DNA from: an uncultured bacterium
GTDB lineage: Bacteria > Hydrothermota > Tepidihabitantia > Tepidihabitantales > Tepidihabitantaceae
Assembly: GCA_964575495.1 (NCBI GenBank)
Contig: CAZNRV010000207.1
Coordinates: 1-27,232, forward strand
Direction: 5' to 3'
Length of the DNA stretch: 27,232 bases
The translations under genes were made by a program, and so were the position numbers. Below, piece by piece: positions 12,804 to 20,639 of the stretch; the first letter of the stretch is position 1, and every line of letters starts with the position of its first letter. The notes under the pieces were generated by a model. The model was given only the letters and a program-made list of their open reading frames with translations. It ran no database searches and was not told where the DNA came from.

Positions 12804-13329
12804 AGGTCTCAATCCGGCAATTGGCTTCAAGTCGATTTTTAGCCTGGTTCTGAGATTAAAACCTTATTAAAAATCAGGGCTCAAGTCTAACCTTTTGCCT
12901 GCCTGCGTTTTTGCGCCTGTTGAGAAATCTTCGCTTCTGCCAAACCCCGGGCTTGAGCCCAAGACCGCCCTTAACAGAATTTCCAGCAGAGACCCAAATT
13001 AAGATTAAAGATTCAAGCCCAAAATCGGTAAAATAACCACTCTTATAACGGGGGTGGTGGAGGGGACGAGCCCTCATTTCCCATCGCCTTAAAAATCAAG
13101 CATTTATAAAATTATACCCTGAAATAACCAACTGCATTTTTAGGGGAATAGCGTTAGGTGCTATCAAAATTAAAGCAAAACAGCATGCCCAAGAAACTTC
13201 AAATTCCTTGACTTTCCCACATTCTTGCCAATTATCCCCTGCCTGATGCGGGAAATAACAGACAAGAATAACAGCAAAGCACAATTTAACCACGAATATG
13301 TCGAGTAGTTACTGTCAGGCGGTCTTTAA

Positions 13330-13616
13330 TGTAATCCTTGCCTAATTACTTCAAAGGCGCGGTGTTGTTTCAATGCCGGAAGGGCGATTGATGGCGCGGG
13401 AAACAAAATTCTGTTGATTGCACGCAAGAAGGGAGTTTCTAATGAATCTGAAAATAGACCTGCAGTCGCTATTAGTCTCTGGCGGAAAATAGGCCTCGTG
13501 CCACTTAATTCACTTGGCGAAATTGGACCTCAGCGCCGAGACATCCACGATGCCTTTACCATCAGTAGAGCTGAAACTGCATATCCTGTTTTCTGGGGCC
13601 ACGACGGTACAAAAAA
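13330..13616 (+). pseudogene. possible gene remnant, perhaps from a DNA methyltransferase/type IIG restriction-modification protein
   Basis: The frame is open from 13330 without a good start and reads ...LGEIGPQRRDIHDAF...AYPVFWGHD before running into repeats. The family resemblance is from memory only. Confidence 0.25.
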
Positions 13617-13622
13617 GGTAGA

Positions 13623-13858
13623 GGTAGAGGTAAAGGCGGTAGTTGCGAGGGCGCTCTGCCCGGGCAGGTGGCGAAAGCCACAAGCCCGTGGCAATCTGAT
13701 GCTTGAGATTGCTTCGCGGAGCCTGCCCCGAGCCTGTGTCCAGAAGGAGATTGCCACCTGCCTTTGGCAGAACGCAATGACACAGGCGTGGGAGCTCCTC
13801 GCAATGACACAGGCGTGGGGGCTCGCAATGACGGAAAGTGGGTAGAGGTAAAGGCGGT
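13623..13858. repeat. REP-like palindromic mosaic bounded by 18-bp direct repeats
   Basis: GGTAGAGGTAAAGGCGGT at 13623-13640 and 13841-13858. Inside are GTGGCAATC (13688) pairing with GATTGCCAC (13749), GAGATTGC twice, and CGCAATGAC three times (13773, 13800, 13824). Confidence 0.8.
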
Positions 13859-13932
13859 TCGTAGTTCTGGGTTCTTGGTTCGTAGTTTGGGAACTGGAAA
13901 CCTGGAACTTGGAACTTACCTACGTAGGCAGG
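13857..13932. repeat. family B GTTC/GAAC heptamer inverted repeat followed by the CCTACGTAGG palindrome
   Basis: GTTCGTA GTTCTGG GTTCTTG GTTCGTA ... GAACTGG AAACCTG GAACTTG GAACTT, then ACCTACGTAGGCAGG. Confidence 0.75.
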
Positions 13933-14003
13933 AGCGCTAAGGCTGTCAGTTTCTTCATAAGGTACTCCTTTTGGGAGTAAGTTTAATTAGCATTGTTGTT
14001 ATG

Positions 14004-15371
14004 TCAATCCCTTGATTTTATTCCCAGCGCCTCAATGATGACATCCTTGCCCGCATTGAGACGCCAGAGTGCGAAGTTGCCTAAAACCCTGATGGTGTAG
14101 CGGAGCGGTTTGCTGCCCGGTTCCTGCACCTTTAAAAGCAGAGGCAGGCAGGCAAAGCGGGCAAGTCCGGCAAAGAGAAACATTACATCGTAGTTGTAGA
14201 AGTCAAGACCAAGGATGGTTAAGTGAAAACGGGAAAGGAGCTGGGCAACCGTACCGGCAAGGATTGCGGCGATGAATGCACCGAGTCCGGTAACAACCGA
14301 GTAAATGGCAAAGTAACTTTCCTTGCGCGCCGGGTTGTCTGCCAAATCCAATAGCAGATTCCAGAGCCCAAGGCTGGCGCCGGTCCAGACAGTGCCGTTG
14401 AGGATTGCATCAATCCAGATGGGCAGGCGGAAATGGGGTGTGGCAAAGAGCCAGAGAAAGGGCATCAGACCGACAAGGGCAAAGTTGAAGACTGTAACCG
14501 GTCTTGAGCCGAACCGGTCAATCACCCTGCCCCAGAAGAGTTGAAAGAGGACGCCGATGACACCACCAATCATTGAGTAGATGGCGATTGCGGCAAAACT
14601 GAAATGCAGATTCTTGATGAGATGGACAAGATAGAATGGTGATGCCAAAGTGCCCGTGAGAAACCAGACCGCAAGGAAGATTGTTAGGCGGCGAAACTGG
14701 GGTTCGTGGAGCGGTCCGAGGAAAATTTCCTTCAAGCTTGGCTCTGGTCTTGGTGTCAGGGGTGGTTCAGGCTGGCGGGTTAAAAGAAGGGTTGAGACCA
14801 AACCGAAACTGACCGCAAGGGTAAAGGCAAGCGCATAGCCGGAAATCTCCTGATTCCCTGCCTTCAGCCAGTCCATTCCCCTGCCGGCAGCATAGGCGAC
14901 AAAGACACCGCTGACATTGAGAATCGCATTGCGCATCCCGAAAAACCTGCCCCTTCTTTCTTCGGGTACCAAATCGCTTATCCAGAATGTCCAGACCGTG
15001 CCGGCGATTGCCATCAGCACGCTTGAAAGCATCACCACGAGCAGGAAGAGTTCAATCTTAAACCTGATGCCGAGGAGGAGAAATGGGACAAACAACAGAT
15101 AGACGGTCCTGCCCAGCCCTGCGGTCCAGAGCACAACCCTTTTGCGCGCACCAACCCGGCGCACCAGATAGCCGGCAAGAAAACTGAATCCGCTGACTAG
15201 GGCTGGGATTGCAGTGAGCAGCGCAATCTGGAAGGAGTTCGCACCAAGAAAGAGCGCGAGACCGGCAAGAAACATCCCGCCCGCCAGGGTGGTATAAAGA
15301 GTGGCAAATGTGCCTTCAATGATGGAGATTTTCAGACCGCGGTTGATTTCGTTCGGGTTAAGCCCGTTCAT
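14004..15371 (-). CDS. MFS transporter
   Basis: About 12 hydrophobic helices; WISDLVPEERRGRFFG and WGRVIDRFGSRPV loop motifs; likely start MNGLNP at 15371, overlapping the lipA 3' end. Confidence 0.85.
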   Translation of the reverse strand: MNGLNPNEINRGLKISIIEGTFATLYTTLAGGMFLAGLALFLGANSFQIALLTAIPALVSGFSFLAGYLVRRVGARKRVVLWTAGLGRTVYLLFVPFLLLGIRFKIELFLLVVMLSSVLMAIAGTVWTFWISDLVPEERRGRFFGMRNAILNVSGVFVAYAAGRGMDWLKAGNQEISGYALAFTLAVSFGLVSTLLLTRQPEPPLTPRPEPSLKEIFLGPLHEPQFRRLTIFLAVWFLTGTLASPFYLVHLIKNLHFSFAAIAIYSMIGGVIGVLFQLFWGRVIDRFGSRPVTVFNFALVGLMPFLWLFATPHFRLPIWIDAILNGTVWTGASLGLWNLLLDLADNPARKESYFAIYSVVTGLGAFIAAILAGTVAQLLSRFHLTILGLDFYNYDVMFLFAGLARFACLPLLLKVQEPGSKPLRYTIRVLGNFALWRLNAGKDVIIEALGIKSRD

Positions 15372-16218
15372 CAGCAAAGATTTTTTCTGCCTGATAGGAA
15401 CTGCGAACCAAGGGTGCGGCAAAGATGTATTTAAAGCCCATCCTGCTGCCTTCCTGTTCAATTTCCTTGAACTCCTCTAATGTCCAGTAACGGGCAACGG
15501 GCAGACATCGCCGACTGGGCTGAAGGTATTGACCGACCGTGACAATATCACAACCAACGCTGCGCAAATCCGCAAATGTGTGCAAGACCTCTAACATTGT
15601 TTCGCCGAGTCCGAGCATCAAGCCGCTCTTGGTCAATAGTGTCGGTGCCATCTTTTTGACCTTTTTCAGCACCGCAAGCGATTGCCGGTAAGATGCCCTT
15701 GGGTCCCGAACCAGGGGTGAAAGCCTTTCAACCGTCTCGAGGTTGTGCGCAAAAACATCTGGTCCGGAATCAACCACGAGCCGCAGGAGATTTTCATTTG
15801 CACCGAAATCAGGGACAAGAACCTCAACTTTGAGTTCAGGGGTTTTTGATTTGAGCATTTTTACTGTTTGCGCAAAGATTCCTGCACCGAGGTCAGAAAG
15901 GTCATCGCGGTCAACCGATGTTAAAACCACATATTTTAAACCCAGTTCTTTGACCGCCTTTGCTACTGATTCCGGCTCGTCAGGGTCAATTTTGCCTTGG
16001 GGGTTGCCGGTTTTAACCGAACAGAACCGGCAGTTTCTTGTGCAGACAGTGCCCAAGAGCATTATCGTGGCTGTGCCTGAGTTCCAGCATTCACTAAGGT
16101 TTGGGCAGCGGGCAGAACTGCAGACCGTATTGAGATGGTGCTGAGAAAGGATGGCGTTGACCCTGTTGAACTCTTCGCCAGCAGGCAACCTGGTCTTGAG
16201 CCAAGCGGGTTTACGCAC
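15358..16218 (-). CDS. lipA: lipoyl synthase
   Basis: RKPAWLK, CX4CX5C (CSSARCPNLSEC), radical SAM CX3CX2C (CTRNCRFC), VLTSVDRDDL, HNLETV, TKSGLMLGLGE, VRSSY. Confidence 0.97.
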   Translation of the reverse strand: MRKPAWLKTRLPAGEEFNRVNAILSQHHLNTVCSSARCPNLSECWNSGTATIMLLGTVCTRNCRFCSVKTGNPQGKIDPDEPESVAKAVKELGLKYVVLTSVDRDDLSDLGAGIFAQTVKMLKSKTPELKVEVLVPDFGANENLLRLVVDSGPDVFAHNLETVERLSPLVRDPRASYRQSLAVLKKVKKMAPTLLTKSGLMLGLGETMLEVLHTFADLRSVGCDIVTVGQYLQPSRRCLPVARYWTLEEFKEIEQEGSRMGFKYIFAAPLVRSSYQAEKIFADERA

Positions 16219-16221
16219 CTT

Positions 16222-17502
16222 TTATGTGGTAATCTTCAAGGCGCGGCGCGGGCAGTTCCAGACACATTCAAAACAGCGGATGCATTCAGCCTGATTCGGG
16301 TCCTCAAAAGGTTCGATGTCGGTTGGGCAGACCTGGCGGCAGACACCGCAGCGGTTGCAGGTTTCAGTGTTGAGTTCCAGGTGCATAAGGCTGATTTTGT
16401 TGAATAAAAGGTAAATTGCGCCAATCGGGCAGATAAGGCGACAGAACGGGCGTTTAATGGTAATCGCAGCCCAGATGACAAAAAGGAGAATTCCGACCTT
16501 GAGATAAAAAAGCCAGCCCACAAGTGCGCGCAAGCCCTGAACCGGGTCCCAGAGAACCAAAGGGATTCCTGCCTCAAGTGTTCCCTGGGGGCAAAGTTTG
16601 CAGAACCACGGTTCAGCAGTAAGATAAGGCAGAGCCACGGCAACAAGTATTAGAAAGGCAAATTTCAACTTAGTTGCGGGCAAGAATACCTTCAGCACCT
16701 TGTCCAGCAATAAGACCAAAAGTGCTGTCATGAGCGTAAACGCCAGTCCAAGTTCGGCGCCGGCGAATGGACCGACCTGAAACGGCTTGCCGAAAAGGCT
16801 CAGCGCAAACCCGAGTGGCGCCGCAATTAATATCACCGGCACACCACCCACAAGACTGAAAAGGGTCATACCTATTATCCCAGTGGCTAACCCCAAGTTA
16901 ATCTCATACTTAAAGGCAATTAGAATTCCAAGCCCGATGCCCACAAGCATTCCACCAAGCCACCATCTTTCCGGTAATCTTAACTTTCCTTTAATAACGC
17001 TGTAAAGTAAAACCAGCATAAAAGGCAGCCAGGCAAAAATGAGCGCTTTCCAGATGGCAACTTGGACAAAAATAGCAAGCAGGACAACCGCAACCAAACC
17101 CACAGCGCCGACAACCACAAACGAAATCCAGCGTTTTGCCCTTGCCCGCGGTTCCAATTTAATTTTGTAGAGCAAATCCTGCCACAACCCGAAAGGGCAA
17201 ATCCAGGCGCAGGCAGTTCTGCCAACAAATGCGCCGATAAGGACAAAAAACCCAATTATTACCCAGGGGACATTCTGCCACCAGGCTGTGCCTTTCAGCC
17301 CAATAATCTGCTGGAGGGAACCGAGCGGGCAGGCAAAAACGGAAAGTGGTCCGCCGTAGCAGTTAAGAACCGGCTCAGGGATGGATTTGAGAAAGCCCGA
17401 ATATATGATTTTATTCTGAATATAGGCGAGGATGTAGCCGTTTAAGATAACGGTAGCGATAATCTGACCGAGCCGATAGGGTGCAATTCTTCTTTTAGGC
17501 AT
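16222..17502 (-). CDS. membrane 4Fe-4S binding protein (NapH/MauN-like polyferredoxin)
   Basis: Multiple TM helices; CX3CP motifs (CAWICP, FCKLCP, CRLICP), LNCYGGP...ACPLG, and two C-terminal CxxCxxCxxxCP motifs (CNRCGVCRQVCP, CIRCFECVWNCP). Confidence 0.9.
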   Translation of the reverse strand: MPKRRIAPYRLGQIIATVILNGYILAYIQNKIIYSGFLKSIPEPVLNCYGGPLSVFACPLGSLQQIIGLKGTAWWQNVPWVIIGFFVLIGAFVGRTACAWICPFGLWQDLLYKIKLEPRARAKRWISFVVVGAVGLVAVVLLAIFVQVAIWKALIFAWLPFMLVLLYSVIKGKLRLPERWWLGGMLVGIGLGILIAFKYEINLGLATGIIGMTLFSLVGGVPVILIAAPLGFALSLFGKPFQVGPFAGAELGLAFTLMTALLVLLLDKVLKVFLPATKLKFAFLILVAVALPYLTAEPWFCKLCPQGTLEAGIPLVLWDPVQGLRALVGWLFYLKVGILLFVIWAAITIKRPFCRLICPIGAIYLLFNKISLMHLELNTETCNRCGVCRQVCPTDIEPFEDPNQAECIRCFECVWNCPRRALKITT

Positions 17503-17509
17503 ATTTTAA

Positions 17510-17526
17510 GGGTCTACACGAGACCC
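17510..17526 (-). promoter_or_regulatory. SECIS-like hairpin for the small selenoprotein
   Basis: After the TGA: 11 nt (CTTTCCTGTAT), stem GGGTCT, loop CGTGT, stem AGACCC; G then U in the apical loop; loop starts 17 nt after the TGA. Confidence 0.75.
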
Positions 17527-17651
17527 ATACAGGAAAGTCATATCTGGGAGGCAAAACCGTGAATAACTGTCAGCATCCCCAGTTTGATGCCGAGAACAAT
17601 CGCTGCCGCACCAAGAACAGCAAAAGTAATGAGGATAAGCCGGCGCTTCAT
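17514..17651 (-). CDS. 45-aa membrane-anchored probable selenoprotein with a C-terminal UxxC motif (CD1871A-like); absent from the ORF track
   Basis: Manual translation gives MKRRLILITFAVLGAAAIVLGIKLGMLTVIHGFASQI-U(TGA 17540-17538)-LSCMGLV-TAG. The U-x-x-C-x-G ending matches the C-x-x-C-x-G ending of small CXXC proteins found upstream of 4Fe-4S membrane proteins (recalled). A SECIS-like hairpin follows the TGA. Confidence 0.85.
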
Positions 17652-17659
17652 AAAGTAAA

Positions 17660-17737
17660 TCTCAATCTCAAAGCACTAAACCCTAAACAAACCATAAGCC
17701 ACGAACTAAAAACCAATTCGGTCATTTCGAGCTTGTT
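17660..17737. repeat. degenerate heptamer-like run plus a GTCATTTCGAGC...GAGAAATC REP-like half element
   Basis: GTCATTTCGAGCTTGTTGAGAAATCC at about 17711-17736 has the same architecture as the GTCATTGCGAG...GCAATC element near 13700; adjacent low-complexity CTAAA/CAAA repeats. Confidence 0.5.
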
Positions 17738-17775
17738 GAGAAATCCCTCTCCTGCCCATTAGAATTTTTCATATT

Positions 17776-19227
17776 TTATATCCTGCTGATTAACTGCACC
17801 TTCACCCCGCGGAAAGGCGCCTCATACCGGCAGACTCCACCGGAACAGGTATAGCCTCCTTTTTCTGCGCCAATCCTTATCCTGAGCACATTGCGCTCAT
17901 TGATGTTGTAAACCGTCTCAAAGACAGGCCATGACTTTTGATTATCATACCGTTTCAGCGAATCCTTGTCCACGCCCTGCCAGCCAATAGTAAAAAGCCA
18001 CTTCTCGCCATATCCATAACTCAAGCTCACAGCCGGCTCGTGATATAACCAGCGCGCGCCTTTGGCAGTGTCGCTCGGTCTTTCATCAACCCAACCCAAC
18101 TCCGCCTCCAGCCCAAAGGTATGCTCGCCAAAAAGATAGTTAATCAGGAGAGCTGGGCGGTCGGTTATCCGCCCTTTTGTTCCCAATTCAATATTTCTCT
18201 GCAGCATATGATTAAACTTGCCTTCAAAAGTCCAGTTAGTGTTAGGCGAATACCGCGCCTTTGCCTCTGCTTCCAGCACGCCGGTGCTCGTGTCATCGTG
18301 GACAAAAAGCCTGCCCAGGTCCACACCTAAATAAAGTCCGGTTAAAGGCATCCCTGAGACCTCTAAACCAAATCCTCTTTCATCCACCCCCCGATTAACT
18401 GCCACCCCGGACTTAATCGGTGTGGGTTGGTCATTGTAATGGTAAATTCCCTCAGGAAAGCCCAGACGGGTGTAATCAACAAACTGACCGACAAGAGAAA
18501 CTCCGGCAAGGCTGGCGCTCGTATTTATTACATAACCAAAACCATTTTCTCTGCCGCCAATCCCCGGTCTTGTTCCTAACCGCCAGCACACCTCGCCCCC
18601 AATGCTCGCCAAACCGAAATCAAGCCTGACATCACCACCAAAAAGTTCGGTAAATGCCTTGGCGCTGGGGTCGACATCGCGATTAATCCGCACATATCTT
18701 GAGCCAAAACCTAAAAACCTCACTGGTCTTGAACTCAAATTAGCGCCTAAGATCTGGTCAGTGCTATCCAGTTCATTCATTAACTTATAACTGTTCTCCT
18801 GAAAAAACACATCCCTTAGCCTTCCGCCCAGAAGGGTGATTTCGCTGCGCAAAGGCAGCCTCAGAATCCCTCTCACACCGTGCAGGCTTTTGTAATGCCG
18901 GAAGTCGTCATCAGAATAGGTCGCGAGCGCGAGACCCTGACCAAAGGTGGCAAAAAATCTTCCGAGCCTGATTTCCAGCTCCTTCAGGTTATAGCCGATT
19001 GAATAATCAAACAGCCGCAATGGTCTACGCACCTCAGGGCTGTGCTTTGACGGTTCAAACAAAAGAATCCCTAATTCTGCATCAAAATCACCATAACGGG
19101 CTGTCAAATCAAGCTTATCCTCAAGATGGGTTGCCCACTGCTCTTGGTATGCCCAGAATTCTGCCCGGTTGCTACCCTGAATGGTAAAATTGGTAGCAAA
19201 GATGGTGGTGAGAAGGATAAAGGTCAC
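17776..19227 (-). CDS. probable outer-membrane beta-barrel protein with a C-terminal Cys pair (DUF6029-like)
   Basis: Alternating amphipathic beta-strand pattern throughout; RLGRFFATFGQGLAL; C-terminal GAEKGGYTCSGGVCRYEAPFRGV resembling the GG..C.GGVCR motif of DUF6029 (recalled). Confidence 0.7.
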   Translation of the reverse strand: MTFILLTTIFATNFTIQGSNRAEFWAYQEQWATHLEDKLDLTARYGDFDAELGILLFEPSKHSPEVRRPLRLFDYSIGYNLKELEIRLGRFFATFGQGLALATYSDDDFRHYKSLHGVRGILRLPLRSEITLLGGRLRDVFFQENSYKLMNELDSTDQILGANLSSRPVRFLGFGSRYVRINRDVDPSAKAFTELFGGDVRLDFGLASIGGEVCWRLGTRPGIGGRENGFGYVINTSASLAGVSLVGQFVDYTRLGFPEGIYHYNDQPTPIKSGVAVNRGVDERGFGLEVSGMPLTGLYLGVDLGRLFVHDDTSTGVLEAEAKARYSPNTNWTFEGKFNHMLQRNIELGTKGRITDRPALLINYLFGEHTFGLEAELGWVDERPSDTAKGARWLYHEPAVSLSYGYGEKWLFTIGWQGVDKDSLKRYDNQKSWPVFETVYNINERNVLRIRIGAEKGGYTCSGGVCRYEAPFRGVKVQLISRI

Positions 19228-19243
19228 CAGACCGCCTACCTAT

Positions 19244-19810
19244 TCATTTCTGTTCGTGCGGCCCCTCACCAGTTGGTTCCTCTTCTTTTTTCTCCTCGGG
19301 GAGCCATTTGCCCATCTCTTCGGCAATTCTTTTCTCATCGCCCTTCTTATAGCCGATATGGGTATAGACAATCTCGCCATCCATATTGATGAGATAGGCG
19401 GTGGGTTTAATGATGATATTGTATGCCTTTTTTACCTTCTGTTCCTGATCAAGTAGCACGATATAGGGCCATTTCTTGGCAGCAACAAACGCTTTAACCC
19501 TCGGTTCATCTGAAGGCTTATCAACCGAAAGCGCGACAATTTTCAACCCTCGCTCCTTTAGTGAATCATAAACTGGCACCAGCGCGTCCAGCTCTGCGAT
19601 GCAGTTCACGCAGGGTAAATCCCAGCATTCCATATAAACTGGGCCTGTCTTCAAAAGCTCCCAAAGGGTTACCTCATTTCCTTCGAGATCGGTCAGGGTG
19701 AAATCCGGCGCCTTTTCATACTCGGTCTCCTTACTTTCCGCCTCACTCCCGCCGTTTAGACCGAGAAGCAGACCTAAAACCACCAAAAACCTCCAACTGA
19801 ACCTAATCAT
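19244..19810 (-). CDS. TlpA-family thiol-disulfide oxidoreductase, exported
   Basis: Signal peptide; APDFTLTDLEG, WDLPCVNC (CxxC), IVALSVD, PTAYLINMDG; start overlaps the upstream stop (ATGA). Confidence 0.9.
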   Translation of the reverse strand: MIRFSWRFLVVLGLLLGLNGGSEAESKETEYEKAPDFTLTDLEGNEVTLWELLKTGPVYMECWDLPCVNCIAELDALVPVYDSLKERGLKIVALSVDKPSDEPRVKAFVAAKKWPYIVLLDQEQKVKKAYNIIIKPTAYLINMDGEIVYTHIGYKKGDEKRIAEEMGKWLPEEKKEEEPTGEGPHEQK

Positions 19811-20604
19811 CTTGTCTCCTCTCCTTCAACTCTCCGCTTAGTCACAGATTGAAGCACCGCCTTTGTGCTGAGGTCCTGAACCGAAACCGCCACTCCAACG
19901 TGTGTCTTCTGATAATCGCGGACATTAGTTACCAGCAGTGTATCAAAATCCTCTCCGAACTTCAGGTTTATTGGAATCCCGAAACTGTCGCCAATCACCT
20001 GACGGACCGTCATTGGTGCATAGGTTGTGTCGCCGATGAGTAACGAATAATATGGGACGCTGTCCTCATAGACAATTGCCACCAGCCTCAGGCTTGTCAT
20101 GGTGTCAATCACTGAATCGGTCGGTATAATTCTGACCCGGAGCCGCAGCGTCGCAGAGTCGATGCTGGTGTGAATGCTATCCAGTTCCATCTCAAGGAAT
20201 GTCTTGCGCGAGCGTGCGGCGTCAATCATATCCCGATATACCGGATAGAATGAGTCTGGAATCGTAACTTGGGGTGAACGCAATGAGCCGTTAAAGAAAG
20301 CTAAGGGCGCCTCCAGTCCGACACCATACCATTCATTCCTGGCGTTGCCTGCCGGCGAAGAAAGTTGCGGATGGGTTTCGGCCGAGTAATAAATCACAAA
20401 AGCCATAGAATCGCCATAGAGGTATTCCAGACTGTCAAGCGCCCGCGCCGCGGACGCACAGTAGTCTCATTCATCCAGTGGTGTTGAAAAGAGTTCAACC
20501 AGAACCACACGGTTTGCCTCACGGACAATCTGCGGTGCATCCGAACAAGAAATCGTTATCAGCACCAAAGCGATGGCGGCAAAAAGCAACAAGCGGTACT
20601 CCAT
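19807..20604 (-). CDS. Omp28-like thioredoxin-fold lipoprotein with selenocysteine (UxxC), 265 aa; joins track ORFs 20467..20766 and 19807..20406
   Basis: The two ORFs are in the same frame, separated by a single TGA at 20469-20467. Read-through gives MEYRLLLFAAIALVLITISC (lipobox)...RVVLVELFSTPLDE-U-DYCASAARALDSL...YGVGLEAPLAFFNG...RLVAIVYED...VAVSVQD...VLQS, typical of Omp28-like Trx folds. Confidence 0.85.
20431..20462 (-). promoter_or_regulatory. SECIS-like hairpin in the Omp28-like gene
   Basis: After the TGA: GACT, ACTGT, GCGTCCGC, loop GGC, GCGGGCGC, TTG bulge, ACAGT. This gives 5-bp and 8-bp stems with a G-first loop starting 17 nt after the TGA. Confidence 0.75.
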
Positions 20605-20611
20605 AAGATAA

Positions 20612-20639
20612 ATTTTAGTTACTGTTAGCTTACAGTCAA
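20612..20639 (-). promoter_or_regulatory. promoter of the selenoprotein cluster, probably leaderless, with an internal palindrome
   Basis: Minus strand: TTGACT (20639-20634), 16-nt spacer, TAAAAT (20617-20612), 7 nt, then ATG at 20604. ACTGTTAGCTTACAGT (20621-20636) is a 14/16 palindrome. Confidence 0.65.

Follow-up and report, generated by a model that had tools for sequence, protein, structure and literature searches.

The window analysed here, the whole 27,232-nt stretch of contig CAZNRV010000207.1 (GenBank assembly GCA_964575495.1), comes from a 1.7-Mb WOR-3 metagenome-assembled genome that is 91% complete. Seven genes occupy positions 14004-20639, all on the minus strand, in the order lipoprotein, TlpA-like thioredoxin, outer-membrane barrel, 45-residue peptide, NapH-like membrane protein, lipoyl synthase (lipA) and major facilitator superfamily (MFS) transporter. 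The first five of these genes form a conserved operon that includes, very probably, two selenoprotein genes and whose products offer a plausible path for electrons across the cell envelope; full-text searches of the literature returned no description of such an operon system. The original prediction, made from this DNA alone, had seen one co-directional run in this gene order, with redox-active Cys or selenocysteine (Sec) motifs in the first five products. All seven genes were found on the minus strand as it stated, and the motifs proved to be present and conserved among relatives. The features of the cluster, in the direction of transcription, are:

20612-20639, minus strand: promoter-like sequence (TTGACT, 16 nt, TAAAAT) immediately before the first gene, a consensus match only
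19807-20604, minus strand: Omp28/HBP35-like thioredoxin-fold lipoprotein, read through one TGA (20467-20469; putative Sec46 in U-D-Y-C)
20439-20457, minus strand: hairpin resembling a selenocysteine insertion sequence (SECIS), 8 bp with a 3-nt loop, beginning 12 nt past the lipoprotein TGA
19244-19810, minus strand: exported TlpA/ResA-like thioredoxin with CVNC
17776-19227, minus strand: predicted DUF6029 outer-membrane beta-barrel of ~24 strands without a plug domain (PF19494, 64.5 bits versus a gathering threshold of 27)
17830-17847, minus strand: barrel motif C461-S-G-G-V-C466, at the modelled turn of the last beta-hairpin
17721-17751, minus strand: copy of a dispersed genomic repeat of ~30 nt within the 124-nt barrel-peptide gap
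17514-17651, minus strand: 45-aa peptide, predicted to be membrane-anchored, with putative Sec38 (TGA at 17538-17540), uncalled under translation table 11
17510-17526, minus strand: SECIS-like hairpin, 6 bp with loop CGUGU, 11 nt past the peptide TGA
16222-17502, minus strand: NapH-like membrane polyferredoxin with four Cys pairs and two 4Fe-4S motifs
15358-16218, minus strand: lipoyl synthase LipA (TIGR00510, 377.9 bits versus a cut-off of 310.25)
14004-15371, minus strand: MFS transporter, with 15371 as the likely start (the longest open reading frame (ORF) extends to 15461)

The lipoprotein stop and the TlpA start overlap as ATGA, and lipA and the MFS gene overlap by ~14 nt, while the remaining spacings are 16 nt between TlpA and barrel, 124 nt between barrel and peptide, 11 nt between peptide and NapH-like gene and 3 nt between NapH-like gene and lipA. 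Matches to the promoter consensus number 12 in the region, versus 6.5 expected. No terminator-like site was found in the 124-nt barrel-peptide gap, which holds a secondary insertion of the dispersed repeat and is not an ancestral intergenic or old regulatory region, because copies 90-97% identical to the sequence at 17721-17751 lie on at least seven other contigs of the same genome. Related loci have no gap of the window's type: there, the end of the barrel gene meets or overlaps the peptide gene.

Probable selenocysteine coding of the two TGA genes

Both in-frame TGA codons very probably encode Sec, making both genes genuine selenoprotein genes, because the TGA is kept in relatives, Cys takes its place in distant homologues, SECIS-like hairpins with compensatory changes are found, and selA, selB and selD are present. 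If TGA is translated as Sec, two ORFs called separately under table 11 become one lipoprotein gene of 265 residues with the TGA at codon 46, and a 45-residue gene with the TGA at codon 38 comes to light. The codon is kept in frame in both genes among related loci, with protein conservation on either side. Among lipoproteins, 75 locus entries, representing 60 distinct sequences, have UxxC, whereas about six distant ones, including L050, L053, L116, L118 and L119, have CxxC. The 69 peptides first detected divide into 32 with UxxC and 37 with CxxC, the remaining peptides of the Sec clade having been recovered afterwards.

The hairpins were assessed from alignments of the related loci. That of the lipoprotein is paired in 95.3% of alignment cells, against at most 54% in slid controls, and contains 63 cells with double compensatory changes versus 16.3 in shuffles. 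That of the peptide is paired in 97.1% of cells, and compensatory changes in both hairpins are well above those in shuffled and slid controls; one of the peptide hairpin's pairs is seen as GC, CG and UA with zero mispairs, and its 3' arm spans the stop codon together with non-coding bases. The genome encodes selA, selB and selD above cut-off. On contig C237 (10598-13639) selB adjoins selD, and this copy of selD carries an in-frame TGA of its own, while a second selD-like gene is split across the ends of contigs C265 and C180.

Structural models and family relationships of the five products

The lipoprotein has a signal sequence with an invariant Cys20, and its AlphaFold2 model, with a predicted local distance difference test (pLDDT) score of 91, is a single thioredoxin-plus-sandwich fold with Sec46 at the N-cap or start of helix 1. 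The closest folds to this model were HBP35 (5y1a; TMq 0.69) and Omp28 (2r2c). No Pfam Omp28 match to the protein was obtained, and its scores against the curated models for Omp28 and the Omp28-related selenoprotein (NF033782 and NF045500) were 17.6 bits versus a cut-off of 150 and 22.1 versus 200. HBP35 of Porphyromonas gingivalis is a cell-surface protein with thioredoxin activity that also binds hemin (PMC2907840). The window protein shares with HBP35 and Omp28 a dithiol-bearing thioredoxin fold at the N-terminus and a beta-sandwich after it, but it is only 12-15% identical to them, is a lipoprotein rather than cargo of the type IX secretion system, and has Sec in place of the first Cys.

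The second product carries an N-terminal signal sequence and matches AhpC-TSA and Redoxin above the Pfam cut-offs, while scoring 82 bits against a ResA subfamily cut-off of 170. Its nearest solved relative is 2m72 (E 4e-19), followed by ResA structures; the CVNC motif aligns with CKPC of 2m72 and ResA, and all 17 relatives compared retain a CxxC. Proteins of the TlpA/ResA type are reductants, and Sec at the attacking position of a UxxC motif is typical of reductases.

The AlphaFold2 model of the DUF6029 protein (pLDDT 89) contains ~24 strands and no plug, and the folds nearest to it are the usher pores FimD and PapC, TonB-dependent barrels, LptD and MtrB. This family has been noted only as Wzi-barrel-like (PMC9603273), and a search of 1.84 billion representatives returned only 248 barrel clusters. 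Residues C461, G463, G464 and C466 are invariant in 22 barrel sequences, down to 20% identity. In the modelled secondary structure the Cys pair occupies the turn that leads into the last strand; by the usual topology of such barrels this turn would be on the extracellular rim, at the tip of the final hairpin, and the pair may form a structural disulfide. The start of the barrel ORF (19176-19227) is uncertain, as it opens with GTG and encodes a signal of ~17 residues without a basic residue, compared with 25-30 residues in relatives.

The peptide starts with MKRR, continues as one hydrophobic helix and ends in Q-I-U-L-S-C-M-G-L-V, with the core [C/U]-L-x-C-x-G invariant among relatives. Its likeness to the CD1871A family of CXXC peptides (NF040920) appears to be one of architecture only: both have a small N-terminal membrane anchor, a C-terminal CxxC and an adjoining NapH-like 4Fe-4S gene, but the window peptide reaches 16 bits where the cut-off is 32, no more than 3 of 21 Cys-type relatives match the family, and these weakly, and a Sec form exists here. 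We also considered the peptide as the precursor of a ribosomally synthesised and post-translationally modified product of a radical S-adenosylmethionine (SAM) enzyme. This candidate was rejected since the lipA gene downstream encodes a full-scoring lipoyl synthase and is the sole copy in the assembly; the absence of a radical-SAM gene at that position in most relatives, and an N-terminus that resembles a membrane anchor, also count against it. A Cys paralogue of the peptide, 49% identical and ending in Q-I-C-L-S-C-M-G-L-V, is encoded on contig C265 (4263 bp) of the same genome, directly before two Omp28/HBP35-like CxxC genes, one for a protein of 588 aa and the other for a lipoprotein, which are followed by selD.

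The NapH-like protein has Fer4_5 and Fer4_18 domains and contains two CX3CP, one CxxCP, one CX9CP and two 4Fe-4S motifs, with 16 Cys invariant among relatives. It consists of a four-helix core with a hydrophobic insertion of ~160 aa, for which a functional role was rejected, as the insertion is hydrophobic and unconserved. No other gene of this genome belongs to PF12801. The protein scored 52.8 and 51.5 bits against the NapH/MauN models TIGR02163 and NF007013, whose cut-offs are 213 and 234; the names Omp28, CD1871A and NapH as used here denote resemblances, all three proteins falling below the curated cut-offs of these families. Because of hydropathy and the positive-inside rule, we place the CX9CP and CxxCP pairs on two predicted periplasmic loops, and the CX3CP pairs would lie on the cytoplasmic face.

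NapH, NosR and RdhC(PceC) are believed to supply periplasmic enzymes with electrons; NapH proper acts as a quinol dehydrogenase, and no function has been assigned to the CX3CP motifs (PMC5928378). The window protein resembles these proteins in its four-helix core and two CX3CP motifs, and NapH and NosR also in its two C-terminal 4Fe-4S motifs. It differs from them in the extra invariant Cys pairs on predicted periplasmic loops, in having no NapG/NapF, flavin mononucleotide domain or reductase partner, and in its partners, a CxxC/UxxC peptide and, among relatives, also a GltD-like flavoprotein. No NapG/NapF or periplasmic nitrate reductase gene was found in the window cluster or in the 73 related loci where barrel and NapH-like genes stand together. 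Complex prediction with alignments for the natural Cys-type peptide/NapH-like pair of locus L088 gave a score of 0.06, which speaks neither for nor against binding.

The Fer4_5 and Fer4_18 domains are shared with the CcoG class, and this, together with the hemin binding of HBP35 and the position of the peptide and lipoprotein paralogues beside selD on contig C265, would suit a system that handles metals or chalcogens rather than protein disulfides, either through cupric reduction as by CcoG or through selenium or sulfur reduction and uptake at the cell surface. We regard such a function as quite unlikely, given that the CcoG model matches the NapH-like protein only at E 0.0024, that the conserved core is without a metal-binding domain or transporter, and that a series of three dithiol/selenol motifs of the thioredoxin type suggests disulfide exchange. 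The idea concerns the end substrate and partly overlaps with the relay proposed below.

Linkage of the genes in related genomes

A barrel search identified 28 loci in WOR-3 where all seven genes follow one another as in the window, and a wider locus search added 79 further loci from WOR-3, TA06, Latescibacterota and Stahlbacteria. Linkage was counted over the 78 non-redundant loci, from these same four groups, that extend at least 1.5 kb downstream of the barrel. The NapH-like gene follows the barrel in 73 of the 78, separated from it by the peptide gene in all 73, and upstream of the barrel these loci carry TlpA in 72 cases and the lipoprotein in 64. The adjacency of barrel and NapH-like gene persists down to ~35% barrel identity while flanking genes change. 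The original prediction had made the linkage of its two halves, lipoprotein/TlpA/barrel and peptide/NapH-like protein, the test of its proposal, and in 73 of 78 loci from several candidate phyla the halves are indeed linked. Among six distant barrels, three are followed by a small peptide or a gap and a Fer4_5 protein and two by neither; the sixth belongs to a rearranged locus with the NapH-like gene ~4 kb upstream.

Downstream of this core the loci diverge. Twenty-eight continue with lipA and the MFS gene, 19 with a GltD-like gene, and most of the other 20 with enolase or succinyl-CoA ligase. The lipA gene, usually accompanied by the MFS gene, occurs only in the window's clade, whose peptide is of the Sec type and whose NapH-like protein is long. 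The 19 GltD-like loci (L051, L054, L055, L088 and 15 others) encode a Cys peptide and a short NapH-like protein, and in each of them the short NapH-like gene overlaps at its end with a gene for a 520-aa GltD-like NAD(P)H Fe-S flavoprotein; the window locus has no GltD-like gene. As judged from these gene orders, the conserved unit is the first five genes, and lipA and the MFS gene are probably passengers rather than parts of the system because they are linked to it in the window's clade only, in line with an earlier caution that their presence might be incidental. Their inclusion as parts of the system was rejected as unsupported, given the GltD-like, enolase or succinyl-CoA ligase genes that other clades carry at this position. 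In L050 (622-1677) and L053 (5003-6039), a lipoate-protein ligase, or Rrf2 and OsmC, lies upstream of an Omp28-TlpA-barrel set, an arrangement that may be due to chance. A link to lipoate drawn from the ligase was rejected, as it stands near one rearranged relative and is a single case.

A proposed thiol/selenol relay across the envelope

Reducing power reaches the bacterial envelope through DsbD and CcdA, and we know of no established route that takes it on to the outer membrane or the cell surface. We propose, with a probability of roughly 0.55, that the first five genes are one operon for a reductive thiol/selenol relay spanning the envelope. A cytoplasmic donor, which in many relatives would be the GltD-like NAD(P)H flavoprotein of the adjoining gene, would reduce the two 4Fe-4S clusters of the NapH-like protein, and electrons would then cross the inner membrane by way of its conserved Cys pairs, from CX3CP on the cytoplasmic side to CX9CP and CxxCP on the periplasmic side. 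They would pass from there to the U/CxxC tail of the 45-residue peptide, anchored with its N-terminus in and its C-terminus out, and the peptide would reduce the periplasmic TlpA-like thioredoxin, which in turn would reduce the UxxC of the HBP35/Omp28-like lipoprotein. The lipoprotein may work with the 24-strand plug-less barrel, or be housed or exported by it. An electron relay had been suggested for this cluster from the window alone; that suggestion is strengthened by the conserved linkage and motifs and by the GltD-like partner, which fits an outward flow, while we still only infer the topology and each step of the path.

We favour the outward direction because the partner in relatives is an NAD(P)H flavoprotein, TlpA-type proteins have the character of reductants, and Sec stands at attacking positions. 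The reverse would be an oxidising or quinone-linked pathway that, in the manner of DsbB or VKOR, takes electrons away from thiols in the envelope, with the NapH-like protein employed as NapH employs quinol. The quinol dehydrogenase activity of NapH proper and the unassigned function of its CX3CP motifs would fit this, as would the absence of the GltD-like gene from the window; it is nonetheless highly unlikely in our view, since 19 relatives pair the NapH-like protein with a cytoplasmic NAD(P)H flavoprotein and both the TlpA-like protein and the two UxxC motifs have the hallmarks of reductases.

Several observations weigh against the relay. CcdA/DsbD is encoded in 89 of 151 WOR-3 genomes, two of the same genus included, and in four of five complete chromosomes carrying the operon, so that the TlpA-like protein could be fed in the ordinary way. 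More distant barrels from Chitinophagales, Coatesbacteria, Hydrothermota and some WOR-3 are accompanied by TlpA and/or Omp28-like genes only, with no peptide or NapH-like gene adjoining, and a single ancestral gene order, inherited within related phyla, may account for most of the linkage. A search for tRNA-Sec in this 91%-complete assembly, in which only 25 tRNAs were recovered, found none. The peptide paralogue on C265 has neither a NapH-like nor a TlpA gene on its 4.3-kb contig, and because it stands beside Omp28-like genes without these partners, the order of partners may differ from that proposed.

Some of the same observations would be explained by two systems that work independently and are joined only through inheritance of their gene order, with TlpA, barrel and lipoprotein served by CcdA/DsbD, and the peptide and NapH-like protein reducing or sensing something unrelated. 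The presence of CcdA/DsbD in most relatives and the distant barrels without a second module agree with this, as does one WOR-3 genome in which the trio stands alone and the peptide, NapH-like and GltD-like genes lie together on another contig (L194 5777-8263). We nevertheless hold this separation to be unlikely, as the adjacency in 73 of 78 loci has outlasted the turnover of flanking genes, relatives have barrel and peptide genes that touch or overlap, and no DsbD_TM (CcdA) gene was found in the cluster or in this 91%-complete assembly. The converse idea, that the module is a general replacement for CcdA/DsbD, was rejected because DsbD_TM co-exists with the operon in most relatives.

The proposed relay has the same logic as the branches fed by DsbD/CcdA (TlpA, ResA, CcmG and Etrx), in which an exported CxxC thioredoxin takes cytoplasmic reducing power and serves clients in the envelope. 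It differs from them in that its membrane part is an Fe-S protein with a micropeptide, not homologous to DsbD/CcdA, in that two of its carriers would use Sec, and in that the chain is proposed to extend to an outer-membrane barrel and a lipoprotein. The outer part finds a counterpart in the TlpA-DUF6029-Omp28 trio of Bacteroidota, which comprises the same three families with the same invariant barrel Cys pair, but whose loci are without the peptide/NapH-like module, have Cys instead of Sec and show another gene order.

More tentatively, and by analogy, the five-gene core could be a haem-free conduit across both membranes, a thiol-based counterpart of MtrCAB. A transmembrane Fe-S wire fed by NAD(P)H or ferredoxin would then supply the micro-selenoprotein, and the barrel would hold or expose the selenolipoprotein for disulfide/selenylsulfide exchange at the cell surface. 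As in MtrCAB and LptDE, a large plug-less barrel is encoded with a lipoprotein, and MtrB and LptD are among its structural matches, but there are no haems here and a placement of the lipoprotein in the lumen would rest on the analogy. If true, this possibility would explain what feeds the TlpA-DUF6029-Omp28 trio of Bacteroidota-type organisms. The operon unites two widespread and unstudied gene modules in one plausible chain and, in relatives, names a likely NAD(P)H-linked entry point for electrons. It very probably adds two selenoproteins, one of them a 45-residue peptide missed by gene callers, and with them corrects the annotation, across a candidate phylum, of a split lipoprotein gene and an uncalled peptide gene.

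Beyond the MFS gene, ~1.2 kb of the window (12842-14003) separates two convergent genes and contains no convincing ORF. No Rfam family matched this interval at gathering score; it does contain a 27-nt tandem repeat of ~2 copies (13773-13832), a hexamer run and a heptamer run.

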